Positions 12,761-50,207 of a stretch of DNA of 64,000 bases are shown one piece after another. The number at the start of each line of letters is the position of its first letter. Position 1 is the stretch's first letter. The notes under the pieces are model-generated. The model saw nothing but the letters and a program-made list of their open reading frames with translations, made no database searches and was not told where the DNA came from. The position numbers were made by a program, and so were the translations under genes. Origin of the DNA: an uncultured Planctomycetia bacterium (lineage in GTDB: Bacteria > Omnitrophota > Gorgyraeia > Tantalellales > Tantalellaceae); the NCBI GenBank assembly GCA_964527765.1, contig CAZGQR010000001.1:25961-89960 (forward strand). The letters run 5' to 3'.

Positions 12761-15556
12761 CTATCTCATCAAGAGCTTTTTGAGATATGCTCCGGTATGG
12801 GACTTCTTGCCGGAAGCCACTTCTTCGGGGGTGCCGCAAGCGACCAGCTCGCCGCCGGTATCTCCGCCTTCCGGCCCGAGATCTATGATATAATCCGCGG
12901 ACTTGATGACATCCAGGTTATGCTCGATCACCAGTACCGTATTTCCGGCGGATACCAGGGCATGCAGCACATCCAGCAGTTTGTGTATATCCGCAAAATG
13001 TAACCCCGTAGTAGGCTCGTCCAGTATATACAGCGTCTTGCCGGTAGCCGTCTTGGACAATTCTGTCGCAAGTTTCACCCTCTGCGCTTCTCCGCCGGAT
13101 AATGTCGTCGCCGGCTGCCCAAGCCTTATATACCCCAGCCCGACATCGTACAGGGTCCGCATCTTGTTCTTGATCGCGGGGATGTTCTCGAACAGCTTCA
13201 GCGCATCCTCCACGCTCAGATCAAGGACCTCAGAAATATTGTACCCCTTGTATCTTATCTCAAGCGTCTGGTCATTGAATCGCTTGCCGTTGCAGACCTG
13301 GCACTGCACATAAACGTCCGGCAGGAAATGCATCTCGATCTTTTTCATCCCGTCGCCCTGGCACGCTTCACAGCGGCCTCCCTTGACATTGAAACTGAAC
13401 CTGCCGGGTTTATAGCCCCGCATGCGCGATTCGGGAAGAGAGCTGAAAAGCTTTCGTATGGGGTCAAATGCTCCCGTGTATGTCGTGGGATTGGACCTAG
13501 GGGTCCTCCCTATGGGGGACTGGTCTATCACTATCACTTTGTCTATGTGTTTAACGCCGTTTATCCTTTTATGCTTACCGGGTTTTACCTTGGACCTGTA
13601 AAGTTTTTTAGCCAGCGCCCTGTATAGAACCTCGTCGATGAGCGTGCTTTTCCCCGATCCCGAAACACCCGTCACGCAGTTAAACACGCCCAACGGGATA
13701 CTCACATCTATGCGTTTGAGATTATGCTCGGCGGCGCCTATCACTTCCAGGCGTTTATCCGGGTCGTATTCCCGCCTTTTCTTCGGCACCTCGATCTTCA
13801 GATCTCCGCGCAGATACTTGCCGGTAAGCGACTGCTTGTTCTTGAGAATATCAGCCAATCCTCCTACTACGACCACTTCCCCTCCATGTTCACCCGCCCC
13901 GGGACCCAGGTCAATAATATAGTCCGCCTTTCGTATAGTCGTTTCGTCATGCTCGACCACCACAAGCGTATTCCCGAGCTCTTTAAGCGCGACCAGGGTG
14001 TCAAGAAGCTTGCGGTTGTCTTTCTGGTGAAGCCCGATACTCGGTTCGTCCAGGACATAGAGCACGCCGACCAGGCCGGCCCCGATCTGCGTGGCGAGCC
14101 GGATCCTCTGGTCCTCGCCTCCTGAAAGCGTGTTGCTTCTCCTGTCCAGGGTGAGATACCCAAGCCCCACATTTATCATGAATTCCAGCCGTGACTTGAT
14201 CTCCTTGAGGGCTTCCTCGGCGATCTTCTTCTGCATCGCGTCAAGCTTAAGGCGGGAAAAATACTCTTTCGCCCCGGTTATGGACATCTCGCACGCGTCG
14301 GCAATGTTCTTGCCCCCGATAAACACATTACGCGATTCCTTGCGCAGGCGCTGCCCCTTACACTCCGGACAGGGCTGAACCGACATGAAACCGCTTATCA
14401 TCTCCTTGATAAAATCGCTTTCGGAGTGGCGGAAACGCCTCTCCAGATTGGGAATAACGCCTTCAAAACCCGATTCATCATCCCCGTAAAGGACCATCTT
14501 CTTCTGGGCGGAAGTCAGCTTCTCGAACGGCATCTCATGATCAAAGCCATGATACCTGGCCATCCTTCGGATATGCCGGCGGTAGTGAAGCACGATCCCT
14601 TTGCCGCCTCTTTTCCAGGGAACAACCGCCCTTATAAGAGATTCGGTCTTGTCCGGGACTATCAGTTCCGGATCTATCTCCATTTTGTTCCCCAGGCCGT
14701 TGCAGGCGGGACACGCGCCGTAAGGGCTGTTAAAGGAAAAATTTCTCGGTGCCAGCTTTTCAAAACTTATCCCGCACCTGAGGCAAGCGTTCTTCTCGCT
14801 GAAAAGTATATCCTCGGTAAGGTTCCCTTTTTCATCCAGCAGAACCACAACAGTAGTACCGGAACCGAGCTTGAGCGCCGTCTCGACCGAATCGGACAGG
14901 CGCGACCGGATACCCTTTTTCATGACAAGCCTGTCCACCACCGCCTCAATAGTATGCTTGACCTTTTTATTCAGTCTCGGGATGCGGTCGCCTATATCCA
15001 CGATCTTTCCGTCAAGCCTTATCCTGATAAGCCCTTCTTTTCTCGCGCCCTTCATCACCTCAACATGCTCACCTTTTCTTCCCTGGATCAAGGGAGCGAG
15101 TATCATCAGCTTTTTGCCTTCCTTAAAGGACATGATACGATCGACGATCTGCTGCGAGCTCTGTCCGGATATTTCCCTGCCGCACCTGGGACAACGCTGG
15201 ATGCCGATCCTCGCGAAAAGCACTCTCAGGTAATCGTAGATCTCGGTCTGCGTGCCTACGGTCGATCGGGGATTCCTTCCAGCCGTCCTCTGCTCGATGC
15301 TTATGGTCGGCGATAATCCCTCGATGTAGTCCACGTGGGGCTTCTGGAGCTGTTCGATAAACTGTCTCGCGTAGCTGGATAAGGACTCCACGTAACGCCT
15401 TTGGCCTTCAGCATATATGGTATCAAACGCGAGAGACGACTTGCCGGAACCGGAAAGGCCGGTAACCACGCACAGCGTGTTCCGTGGAATGCGGACATCG
15501 ATGCTTTTGAGGTTATGCTCCCTGGCGCCTTTTACGAAAATATGATCCTTGCTCAT
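12761..15556 (-). CDS. uvrA: Excinuclease ABC subunit A
   Basis: ORF track 12761..15613. Two ABC ATPase modules ([20 protein letters not shown]) and zinc fingers. The likely start is [17 protein letters not shown]. Confidence 0.95.
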
Positions 15557-33797: not shown

Positions 33798-33886
33798 GGG
33801 ACAGGTCTGAGATTGGTTTTGGGGACAGGTCTGAGATTGGTTTTGGGGACAGGTCTGAGATTGGTTTTGGGGACAGGTCTGGATTC
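33798..33886. repeat. Tandem direct repeat of the 24-bp unit GGGACAGGTCTGAGATTGGTTTTG, about 3.7 copies, between ribF and rpsO
   Basis: Three perfect head-to-tail copies plus a truncated, diverged fourth copy (GGGACAGGTCTGGATTC), read directly from the sequence. Confidence 0.9.
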
Positions 33887-46298: not shown

Positions 46299-46772
46299 TT
46301 ATTTTATTGCCGAATACAGATTGCTCATCTCGATGGCGGTCATCGCGGCTTCTCTTCCCTTATTGCCGCTTTTCGTACCGGCCCTGTCCACCGCCTGCTC
46401 AAGATTATCCGTGGTTATTATGCCGAACACGCAGGGGATGTCGCTCTCCATCGCGACTTTCGCTACCCCTTTGGCCGCCTCAGACGCGATGAACTCAAAG
46501 TGGGGAGTCTCTCCCCTTATGATCGCCCCCAGACAGATCACGGCATCGTACTTCCCGGATCCCGCCATTCTTTTGGCGACAATGGGTGTCTCGAACGAAC
46601 CGGGCACCCACGCAACGGAGATATCCTTTTCTTTTACACCGTGCTTCGAGAGAGTGTCGAGTGCTCCTTCAAGAAGTTTCGACGAGATGAACTCGTTGAA
46701 CCGAGATACCACTATCCCGAACTTCTTGTCCTTTGCTATCATGCTGCCCTTGATGATCTTTGAATTTGTCAT
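46299..46772 (-). CDS. ribH: 6,7-dimethyl-8-ribityllumazine synthase
   Basis: ORF track 46299..46796. The likely start is [29 protein letters not shown]. Confidence 0.9.
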
Positions 46773-46784
46773 TTCTACCTCCTT

Positions 46785-47030
46785 AAATGAGCACATGACT
46801 TACGCGACTGAAAAGAGCGTAAGTTATAGGTGCGAATTTATCCCGAGCTCGCTACAAGCGAGCGAGGGGTCCAAATGAGCACATGACTTACGCGACTGAA
46901 AAGAGCGTAAGTTATAGGTGCGAATTTATCCCGAGCTCGCTACAAGCGAGCGAGGGGTCCAAATGAGCACATGACTTACGTGACTGTACGAAGCGTAAGT
47001 CATACGTGCGAATTTACATCTTACCCGTAA
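46785..47030. repeat. Tandem 88-bp palindromic repeat units (two perfect copies plus a diverged partial third) between ribBA and ribH
   Basis: The unit is AAATGAGCACATGACTTACGCGACTGAAAAGAGCGTAAGTTATAGGTGCGAATTTATCCCGAGCTCGCTACAAGCGAGCGAGGGGTCC, at 46785-46872 and 46873-46960. Each contains two hairpins (ACTTACGC/GCGTAAGT and CTCGCT/AGCGAG). Confidence 0.9.
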
Positions 47031-47062
47031 CCGCGAAGGTTTAAGGGCAAGATGCCAAAATT

Positions 47063-48262
47063 TTAAACATTCCGCAATTTATGGCCTAAACGGCGCTTCT
47101 TTACCTGTAAATAATCTTTATTTCTGGCTCCCGGCTTTATCTCCAGCGGCACTCTTTCCACAACCTGCAGGCCGTAGCCTTTCAACCCTATTATTTTCCT
47201 TGGATTATTGGTCAAAAGCCTGATCTTTTCAAGGCCGAGATCAGCCAGTATCTGGGCACCTATACCGTAATCTCTCAGATCCGGCTTAAAACCGAGCCTT
47301 TCATTGGCTTCCACCGTATCACACCCTTCGTCCTGCAATTGATACGCTCTTATCTTGTTAAAGATCCCTATCCCGCGACCTTCCTGGGAAAGATACAAGA
47401 GTACCCCTTTCCCCTCATCGGAGATTATCCGCATCGCTTTTTCAAGCTGTCCTCCGCAATCACATCTGAGCGAATGGAACACATCTCCGGTCAGGCATTG
47501 CGAATGGACCCTGACCAGCGCCTCTCCTTTCGTGATGTCCCCTTTGACCAGAGCGAGATGCTGATAATTATCCACCATCGACTTGTAGGCATGCAGACGG
47601 AATTCTCCAAAAGGTGTGGGAAGATCCGTTTCCGCGATCTTCTCTATGAGCTTTTCTTTCTCTCTGCGGTATTTTATGAGACTCTCAATGGTGCATATCT
47701 TCAGTTTATGGTTGCTTGCAAAGTTCAACAGGTCCGGCATCCTCGCCATCGTGCCGTCTTCGTTCATGATCTCGCATATCACTCCTACCGGCTCCTCCCC
47801 CGCAAGCTTCATAAGATCGACACTCGCTTCGGTATGTCCGGCCCGGACAAGAACGCCGCCCTTCTTGGATCTGAGCGGAAAAACATGTCCGGGTCTCGTG
47901 AAATCTTCCGCAACCGATTTCGGGTCCGCGAGAAGTTTTATGGTGCGGGCGCGGTCATGCGCGGATATCCCTGTGGTTACGCCTCCGGCGGCATCAACAG
48001 ACACCGCCCAGGCCGTCTTATAAGGATCCTGCGGCTCTTCCGACATAAGATGAAGCCCCAGCCTCTCGGCTATATCATCCTCCATGGGGACACAGATAAG
48101 CCCTCTACCGTACTTCGCCATGAAATTGATATTTTCTGCCGTGATACGCGGCGCGGAAGCTATAAGGTCGCCTTCATTCTCTCTCGAGGGATCGTCAACA
48201 ACCACGACCATCCGGCCTTTTTGGATGTCCCCGATCACTTCTTCTATAGTGTTCAGCTTCAC
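47063..48262 (-). CDS. ribBA: Bifunctional 3,4-dihydroxy-2-butanone-4-phosphate synthase / GTP cyclohydrolase II
   Basis: 399 aa with GTG start. It has an N-terminal DHBP synthase region (ENEGDLI) and a C-terminal GTP cyclohydrolase II (CDCG...EGRGIG). Confidence 0.9.
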
Positions 48263-48289
48263 GCCTGCCTCTCTTGCGGTTCCAGCATA

Positions 48290-48326
48290 TACAAAAAAAG
48301 CCCTGAAATAACTTCAGGGCTTTTTA
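48290..48326 (-). terminator. Intrinsic terminator / attenuator hairpin (GCCCTGAAG-TTATT-TCAGGGC + U-run), the expression platform of the FMN riboswitch
   Basis: A perfect 9-bp stem followed by TTTTTTT on the minus strand, between the riboswitch aptamer and the ribBA RBS. Confidence 0.65.
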
Positions 48327-48334
48327 CTGTATAA

Positions 48335-48511
48335 AACCAGTTTTCCCGACTTCTTTCATCCCGGCTTTACGGTCGGTATTCGATTCTCACGAATTCGGAC
48401 CCCGTCTATCGGGGTTTCGCGGACTTTTCCTCGCTTGCGCGGAGAAATCACCGCCGACTAAGGAATTTCCTGCCGCATCCCTGCGGGGGCAGGATCACCT
48501 TACCCTGAAGT
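48335..48511 (-). promoter_or_regulatory. FMN riboswitch (RFN element) in the ribBA leader
   Basis: The minus-strand RNA contains conserved RFN blocks: GCGGCAGGAAATTCC, GTCGGCGGTGA, CCGCGCAAGCGAGG and ACCGACCGTAAAGCCGGGATGAAAGAAG. These match the GGGGCAGGGTGAAATTCCC / CCGGCGGTA / CCGACAGTGAAAGTCTGGATGGGAGAAG consensus. Confidence 0.75.
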
Positions 48512-48518
48512 TAGAATA

Positions 48519-48546
48519 ATTCTAACACACTTGACCTTTAAGTCAA
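48519..48546 (-). promoter_or_regulatory. Sigma-70-type promoter for the riboswitch/rib operon (TTGACT-N16-TAGAAT on minus strand)
   Basis: The -35 is at plus 48541-48546 and the -10 at 48519-48524, immediately upstream of the riboswitch aptamer. Confidence 0.45.
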
Positions 48547-48554
48547 GGTCTCAT

Positions 48555-50207
<1,653 letters not shown>

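Follow-up and report, generated by a model that had tools for sequence, protein, structure and literature searches.

A tandem hairpin array in the ribBA-ribH spacer is a local cluster of a dispersed element, not described before, that occurs in Omnitrophota and Planctomycetota

The DNA analysed here is a 64,000-nt stretch (hereafter the window) in which the rib genes all lie on the minus strand. The ribBA gene (DHBP synthase / GTP cyclohydrolase II, 48262..47063; Pfam PF00926, 8.5e-85, and PF00925, 1.4e-76) ends on a TAA stop codon (47065..47063) and is followed, after a spacer of 290 nt, by ribH (lumazine synthase, 46772..46299; PF00885, 2.1e-58). Downstream of ribH lie, in order, nusB, a gene encoding a PHP domain, ribD and ribE. 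The ribH start codon at 46772 was confirmed by comparison with relatives; together with its ribosome-binding site it occupies 46770..46783 (GGAGG, 46782..46778; ATG, 46772..46770). Ahead of ribBA on the same strand are an FMN riboswitch (48516..48344; Rfam RF00050, 70.6 bits), its intrinsic terminator (48325..48295), identified by a terminator scan, and a promoter-like site, TTGACT-16-TAGAAT (48546..48519), identified by a promoter scan. These three sites are predicted to control the transcript that carries the spacer described below. The Pfam assignments agree with an earlier note, which had placed the repeat units of this spacer between ribBA and ribH inside a riboflavin operon.

The spacer is filled by a tandem array, which Tandem Repeats Finder reported at 46785-47016 (period 88, 2.6 copies, 95% matches, score 415). 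A repeat search showed that the 88-nt units at 46785-46872 and 46873-46960 are 100% identical, confirming the two perfect copies and one diverged copy described in the earlier note. The diverged copy is shared in part only: homology is limited to its first 56 nt (46961-47016; 87.5% identity, 7 substitutions), and the remainder is another hairpin. The proposed 88-bp unit likewise stands as a period, the natural unit being a hairpin of 57 nt, named hp1, followed by one of ~31 nt, named hp2. Both inverted repeats claimed for each unit were recovered by the repeat search and by folding, and none of 100 shuffles of the window matched either hairpin. On the plus strand, the array reads hp1A-hp2A, hp1B-hp2B, hp1C-hp2C. 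Copy A of hp1 (46784..46840, 57 nt; 76.1 bits, E 6.5e-18 with R1, the hp1 covariance model) folds with the layout TAAAT-GA-GCAC-ATGACTTACGC...GCGTAAGTTAT-AG-GTGC-GA-ATTTA; it abuts the ribH ribosome-binding site, its closing T at 46784 lying 1 nt from the Shine-Dalgarno core on the opposite strand. It is followed by hp2A, an inverted repeat of type a (46841..46871, TCCC-GA-GCTCGCT-ACA-AGCGAGC-GA-GGGG). Copy B of hp1 (46872..46928, 72.5 bits), part of the 100% repeat, differs from copy A solely in its closing base, a C derived from the junction with hp2, and hp2B (46929..46959) is the same as hp2A. The diverged hp1C (46960..47016, 72.7 bits) differs at 7 of 56 positions and folds with a perfect 10-bp upper stem. 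Its companion hp2C (47017..47054, CATCTTACCCGTAA..TTAAGGGCAAGATG), an inverted repeat with 14-nt arms that are 86% complementary, is a different hairpin from hp2A and hp2B; the array therefore contains at least two distinct elements. The far end of the array lies 8 nt from the ribBA stop codon.

Folding, a check proposed in the earlier note, indicated that the unit is stable and well below shuffled sequences on both strands. A single unit reached -42.4 kcal/mol on the plus strand (z -7.6 against shuffles) and -31.5 kcal/mol on the rib-mRNA strand (z -5.3), and the entire spacer reached -131.3 kcal/mol (z -12.9) and -111.7 kcal/mol (z -7.1), respectively. Promoter and terminator scans found no promoter-like or terminator-like site inside the array, and co-transcription with the rib operon was therefore taken as the default assumption. 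Two more specific readings of the structure were rejected. The hp1A/B loop, CGCUCUUUUCAG on the rib-mRNA strand, is boxA-like and nusB lies downstream, which evoked boxA/Nus autoregulation; this was discarded, since it is the apex that varies within the family and copy C bears no such resemblance. A hammerhead-like core (UGAG..CGAA) proved to be just the tandem G·A motif, the CUGA/GAAA positions differing and no Rfam match being found. Separately, an ATG at 46796 on the minus strand, inside hp1A, is in frame with ribH and opens a spurious 165-aa ORF (46299..46796).

The 20-nt 5' arm common to all three local hp1 copies, AAATGAGCACATGACTTACG, gave 21 exact matches in 17 MAGs/SAGs of other species when searched against one-genome-per-species GTDB contigs; by our own estimate from the size of the collection, ~1 match would be expected by chance. 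The matches came from Ca. Omnitrophota (13), 'uncultured Planctomycetia' (6), Ca. Scalindua rubra (1) and an unclassified bacterium (1), and four MAGs had two matches each, on different contigs. The 3' arm of hp1 added 12 loci from metagenome contigs. With R1, 44 copies were found in the window and 33 further loci (identified below by L numbers where they need to be told apart), 41 of them outside the window. The dispersed copies that the earlier note had suggested searching for were thus present, in the genomes of other organisms. Viral contigs, plasmids and phages in the collections searched contained no hp1 match. No other hp1 was found in the window plus ~20 kb of same-species flanks (~84 kb), which points to a low copy number in this genome. 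Exact 20-mer matches never exceeded two per MAG, a lower bound on copy number in incomplete genomes. Many copies lie near contig ends, and for this reason the elements appear to break assemblies.

In Rfam 15, no family matched the array (46600-47200) at E <= 10 with a score reaching its gathering threshold. The sub-threshold matches, PhotoRC-I at 47029-47057 on the edge of hp2C and sR39 at 46606-46621, were far below their thresholds. Six other loci with canonical hp1 copies gave no relevant match at E <= 1, and a search of the whole window at gathering thresholds, together with the locus searches, returned the FMN riboswitch, tRNAs and chance matches only (in L011, miRNA precursors). A literature text search by sequence and topic found no account of this element. 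Collectively, these data indicated that the array is a local cluster of a previously undescribed dispersed hairpin element found in Omnitrophota and Planctomycetota.

Comparison of the copies revealed a well-defined hp1 architecture (consensus TAAATGAGCACATGACTTACG..CGTAAGTCATAAGTGCGAATTTA). The 5' side consists of T(N)AAAT, a GA mismatch, a 4-bp stem, a 3-bp stem, the core ACTTACG and a variable apex; the 3' side returns through CGTAAGT, the 3-bp stem, a 2-nt bulge, the 4-bp stem, a GA mismatch and ATTT(N')A. The length of hp1 ranges from 55 to 71 nt across the family and is 57 nt in the window. Both short stems vary with pairing preserved: GCAC/GTGC in the 4-bp stem is replaced by GACC/GGTC, GGCC/GGCC, GACT/AGTC or GGAC/GTCC, and ATG/CAT in the 3-bp stem by ACA/TGT, ATA/TAT, ATC/GAT, CAA/TTG or ACG/CGT. 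Across a 42-copy alignment, 95.8% of the cells were paired and 8 of 20 pairs had changed on both sides (34 cells); this alignment was fitted to the covariance model, which favours structure, and the compensatory variants are still plain in the raw sequences. None of 500 shuffles reached the real value, and slid controls were 17-40% paired. The family-wide pattern thus bears out the claim that the third copy retained its hairpin pairing. Invariant or nearly so were the 7-bp ACTTACG/CGTAAGT core, the GA/GA internal loop (38 of 40 copies) and the bulge. The apical loops are rich in purines (74%) and include C(GNA)G triloops in 12 of 40 copies. Both such triloops and tandem G·A pairs typify DNA hairpins of very high stability. 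These non-Watson-Crick features of hp1 are strand-specific and define a 'sense' strand of the family, which in the window is the plus strand; G·U and A·C combinations (10 each) carried no strand signal.

The second hairpin is more variable than hp1 and comes in several interchangeable types. At least three were distinguished (ATCCCGAG.., CCCCACACCCAG.. and GATTGCGAG..GAAGCAATC), along with a further module, TTTAATTCGCAGACGGCCTTCGGCC. Type a of the window was also found, as ATCCCGAG..CGAGGGATC, in L012, L018, L025 and L026. A hairpin GATTGCGAG..CGAAGCAATC is used as hp2 in L011, L027, L028 and L036, and a module TTTAATTCGCAGACGGCCTTCGGCCTACAATTT was seen 3' of hp2 in several genomes (L010, ~1700-1760; L033, ~1150-1190; L027, ~1260-1300). 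The organisation of the family is therefore mosaic, with several hp2 types and an additional conserved module after some copies. Besides the window, arrays occur in L030, L011, L009 and L005; the one in L030 combines three hp1 subfamilies at spacings of 132 and 128 nt.

The position of hp1 relative to genes was strongly biased. For 19 of the 41 hp1 copies that lie outside the window, a co-oriented upstream ORF ended 2, 3 or 7 nt into hp1; we estimate that random placement of hp1 in 100-200-nt intergenic spacers would produce these positions in 1-2% of cases. The stop codon was provided by the element's own T-A-A, by T-G-A with an extra G-C pair, or by the TGA of AAATGA. The 5' T pairs with the 3' A to close the stem and so belongs to the element in any context. 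A partial GroEL ORF in L032 ends in hp1 in the same way, as does GroEL at a truncated copy in L005, and the ORFs ending in hp1 encode an aminotransferase, DnaX, RNase Y (twice), PFK (twice), PGK, an SDR-type reductase and GroEL. Two RNase Y orthologues with 69% protein identity both end in hp1 copies that have conserved arms and unrelated apices. Termini of REP elements also often supply the stop codon of a flanking ORF (PMC3733652). About 80% of the loci are in sense orientation to the upstream gene, and those antisense to neighbouring genes are the window, L017, L018, L027-1151, L030 and L036. The three-copy antisense arrays of the window and of L030 each run right up to the Shine-Dalgarno sequence of the gene that follows. 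The array does not qualify as an intrinsic terminator (a G+C-rich hairpin with a U-tract), as hp1 and hp2 are followed by AUUUAUCCC and GGGAUCUC, with no U-runs. A crude scan of our own placed canonical terminators after 3-5 of the 44 copies. The same organisms do have canonical terminators, at the riboswitch (48325..48295) and downstream of groEL in L038 and L040.

The organism belongs to Ca. Omnitrophota, and its RibH shares 84% identity with that of Ca. Makaraimicrobium thalassicum. In the three closest relatives with contigs (RibH identity 89, 85 and 84%), the groES-groEL-rib order is kept and the ribBA-ribH spacers measure 20, 26 and 59 nt, without hp1. Because these spacers are empty, the array was considered a lineage-specific insertion. 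Copy number also varied at the locus itself: among contigs 99.8-100% identical to the window, L003 has two perfect 88-nt units, and L001 and L002 have one. When L002 (213-2956) was aligned with the window (46873-49616), identity was 94% across groEL-ribBA, the spacer was identical and the downstream part was 99.8% identical, a pattern which suggests recombination near the locus. At other loci, the same hp1, including its apex, was found at three different flanks (L027, L028 and L036), and two copies in L010 share their hp2. A composite of ~250 nt, made up of hp1, a CCCCACACCCAG-type hp2, ~120 nt and an inverted hp1-like hairpin, occurs twice in L034 (336-583 and 1616-1866), 1281 nt apart; it resembles a larger MITE-like unit with hp1-like ends.

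No candidate mobilising enzyme was identified in the sequence covered. Searches by tblastn of ~0.4 Mb (window plus loci) with approximate IS608 TnpA and E. coli RAYT query sequences gave no match at E < 0.5, and neither a transposase nor Y1_Tnp was present among the 25 most recurrent of the 222 Pfam families in 131 neighbouring ORFs. No target-site duplication was evident at hp1 flanks, and no insertion sequence with hp1-type ends was seen in the loci examined. An insertion sequence bounded by outward-facing hp1 copies was considered for L010 and L027 and rejected, the enclosed ORFs having no obvious IS-like layout and no transposase family recurring. Three genes encoding an ORF6N domain (PF10543; L018, 3464-4021 and 4918-5577; L036, 787-1302) adjoin antisense hp1 copies and other hairpin repeats. 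ORF6N is the sole family to stand out among the recurrent families listed for the 131 ORFs; it may offer a weak lead, or its proximity may be a coincidence of repeat-rich regions.

We compared hp1-hp2 with known classes of small structured elements. REPs (sensu Di Nocera 2013 / Bertels & Rainey 2011) are defined as palindromes of 20-40 bp in high copy number with a GTAG or CGTC tag at one end (PMC3733652), accompanied by a RAYT (Y1 HUH transposase) gene that the repeats flank. The hp1 consensus ends without GTAG or CGTC on both strands, and with 55-71 nt and one locus in ~84 kb, a lower bound, it departs from REPs in length and in high copy number. Like the REP, REPIN and BIME elements of Proteobacteria, the family consists of short, extragenic, imperfect palindromes, dispersed, single or clustered with other short motifs, located inside operons or at the 3' ends of genes, co-transcribed and variable in copy number between strains. 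The alternation of palindromic units with a small set of motifs corresponds to that of BIMEs, as an analogous organisation and not as homology to the enterobacterial elements. Unlike REPs, hp1 of the window spans 57 nt without a tag and has a core of 7 bp whose sequence is fixed and two internal loops made of tandem G·A; its arm is shared between phyla rather than species-specific, its copy number is apparently low and no RAYT was found in the searches above. MITEs have terminal inverted repeats bordered by a target-site duplication, and a related autonomous IS. The arms of hp1 are inverted repeats too, but its flanks show no direct duplication; the outermost T...A and the optional G-C, C-G or A-T pair are complementary, not direct.

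Further similarities were found with ERIC/IRU and Correia (CREE/NEMIS) elements, which are also long imperfect hairpins (~60-150 nt), intergenic, in either orientation and co-transcribed. De Gregorio et al. reportedly found that the influence of ERIC and Correia elements on mRNA processing and stability depends on orientation. In contrast to these elements, hp1-hp2 shows no sequence similarity to them and no TA target duplication, occurs in other host phyla and has its 5' end locked to stop codons; the unit is also asymmetric, since hp2 always lies on one side of hp1. PATEs derived from IS200/IS605, and other HUH substrates, share conserved imperfect hairpins, strand-specific mismatches or bulges, orientation bias and the lack of conventional terminal inverted repeats and of target duplication. 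They differ from the present family in that no TnpA/TnpB gene and no conserved tetra- or pentanucleotide target upstream was found here, and an HUH link is put forward as a hypothesis only. Integron attC sites share a folded single strand with a foot, an unpaired spacer, extrahelical bases and a variable apex, as well as arrays and a position just after ORFs; the R'' (RYYYAAC) and R' (GTTRRRY) core sites are missing from the hp1 consensus, and the neighbours are fixed, syntenic housekeeping genes and not cassettes. Because hp1-hp2 falls outside the definitions of REP, MITE and attC, has no Rfam family and is not described in the literature searched, we regard it as a new family belonging to a known kind of element. 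Two of its traits are unusual, namely a start locked onto stop codons and an arm sequence conserved across phyla.

We propose that hp1-hp2 is a REP/BIME-like or MITE-like, non-autonomous structured repeat recognised as a hairpin, and put the probability of this explanation at about 60%. The similar suggestion of the earlier note gains support from the further copies, the compensatory changes and the mosaic hp2. Presence or absence between related species, identical copies at different loci and the exchange of hp2 all suggest that the family behaves like REP/BIME or MITE elements. At the rib locus, two different hp1-hp2 elements would have entered a short ribBA-ribH spacer (~20-60 nt) in reverse orientation. 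Slippage between neighbouring hp1 copies, whose first 20 nt are identical and lie 88 nt apart, would then have added or removed one 88-nt unit. On the rib mRNA, the co-transcribed array is predicted to form six strong stem-loops that end 1 nt from the ribH ribosome-binding site. These stem-loops may act as an RNase barrier or processing site, which would uncouple the mRNA levels of ribBA and ribH and still allow ribH to be translated. By analogy with REP, ERIC and Correia elements in operons, this is the most likely type of effect on rib transcripts; REPs located near stop codons are also reported to affect translation (Liang, Rudd and Deutscher, 2015). Spread of the family would proceed through recognition of the hairpin by some trans-acting enzyme, and the form recognised is probably single-stranded DNA.

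The conservation of hp1 across phyla and at orthologous sites exceeds that expected of a neutral selfish repeat, and suggests a host function. According to the strongest alternative, which we regard as a real possibility although not the probable one, hp1-hp2 is a host-functional cis element at the 3' ends of genes, acting as RNA or single-stranded DNA and bound by a conserved protein of the PVC group. It might set the 3' end or stability of the mRNA, or modulate termination and ribosome release, the ribBA-ribH copy being a stray, reversed one. Genuine housekeeping ORFs that end within hp1, at 19 of the 41 outside copies and at the L032 GroEL, argue for such a function, as do the sense orientation of ~80% of loci, arms identical across two phyla and a low copy number per genome. 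Retention of hp1 at RNase Y stop codons despite 69% identity, and at groEL in both L005 and L032, is consistent with it, and so are the strand-specific tandem G·A pairs and purine-rich loops and the scarcity of canonical terminators after hp1 (3-5/44). However, the element varies in presence, recurs in identical form at unrelated flanks and forms mosaic arrays, a picture closer to proliferation than to a site-specific function; close relatives lack hp1 at the same genes, and ~20% of loci are antisense, including the two three-copy arrays of the window and L030. For a role in read-through, an in-frame TGA four codons past the TAA is a counter-argument. A more specific and more speculative version, held tentatively, is that hp1-hp2 is a conserved, strand-specific module, common to Omnitrophota and Planctomycetota, that is embedded in the stop codons of diverse housekeeping genes and recognised by a conserved protein, through which translation termination would be linked to the formation of the mRNA 3' end, to mRNA stability or to ribosome rescue. 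The stop codon could then sit in the closing pairs of a 20-25-bp rod carrying the tandem G·A motif twice, with the stable upper stem beginning ~8 nt past the stop.

An assembly artefact, affecting the repeat or at least its copy number, is improbable. The forms with two units and with one do come from different assemblies, and de Bruijn assemblers may be expected to collapse perfect tandem repeats exceeding the read length. Against this, arrays with at least two hp1 copies were found in four independent contigs from three samples in addition to the window, and by our own calculation the perfectly periodic stretch of 196 nt contains no repeated 141-mer. Transcription of the plus strand as a separate antisense or small RNA against the rib spacer seems very improbable: the plus strand is the family's sense strand here and the unit folds ~11 kcal/mol better on it than on the rib-mRNA strand, but no sigma-70-like promoter or terminator-like site was found on that strand in or next to the array, and the family is normally co-oriented with, and abuts, an upstream CDS, which points to co-transcription. 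Still harder to sustain is the proposal that the hairpins are attC-like sites of a gene-cassette array (integron or CALIN). The conserved foot, unpaired spacer, extrahelical bases, variable apex, location after stop codons and arrays would suit it, but the RYYYAAC/GTTRRRY core sites are missing and the groEL-rib order is the same in relatives without the element; the only tyrosine recombinase gene, XerC/D-like, was seen in the relatives L038-L040, a few kb beyond the downstream end of the rib operon, and no integron integrase was identified. Finally, a purely local tandem duplication of the ribH leader, without relatives elsewhere, agrees with the identity of the 88-nt units and the lack of a further copy in the 64-kb window but is refuted by the dispersed 20-mer matches and R1 copies (41 hp1 copies beyond the window, spread over 33 loci in other organisms) and by the different hp2 of the third copy.

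To our knowledge, work on small structured intergenic repeats (REP, BIME, ERIC, Correia) has dealt almost solely with Proteobacteria and a few pathogens; hp1-hp2 supplies a defined consensus and a covariance model for such repeats in Planctomycetota and in the uncultivated Omnitrophota. Arms shared across phyla and a fixed stop-codon position raise the question of whether a dedicated enzyme or a host function at mRNA 3' ends maintains the element, and if the module embedded in the stop codon were real, it would represent a widespread class of cis-elements. The elements also create spurious ORF extensions, as with the in-frame ATG upstream of ribH, and can alter intercistronic spacing in essential operons such as rib. 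The one-unit (88-nt) difference between near-identical strains is a possible strain marker.

Several minor observations were made at the same locus and nearby. After the groEL stop codon, the minus strand of the window at 48517-48557 reads TAAATGAGACCTTGACTTAAAGG.., the first 11 nt of which equal the 5' start of the 'GACC' subfamily of hp1. The -35 box of the rib promoter-like site, TTGACT, falls inside this apparent hp1 remnant, which scores just 7.7 bits with the covariance model; the remnant could have been co-opted into the -35 box. In the relative L037, a degenerate hp1 copy (17.9 bits) also follows groEL. The same contig, from the closest relative, carries between ribD and ribE an 86-aa ORF with a GIY-YIG domain (13064-13324) that is absent from the window. 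Elsewhere in the window, at 33798-33885, a 24-nt unit, GGGACAGGTCTGAGATTGGTTTTG, is repeated in tandem (3.7 copies, 98% matches) between two minus-strand ORFs.
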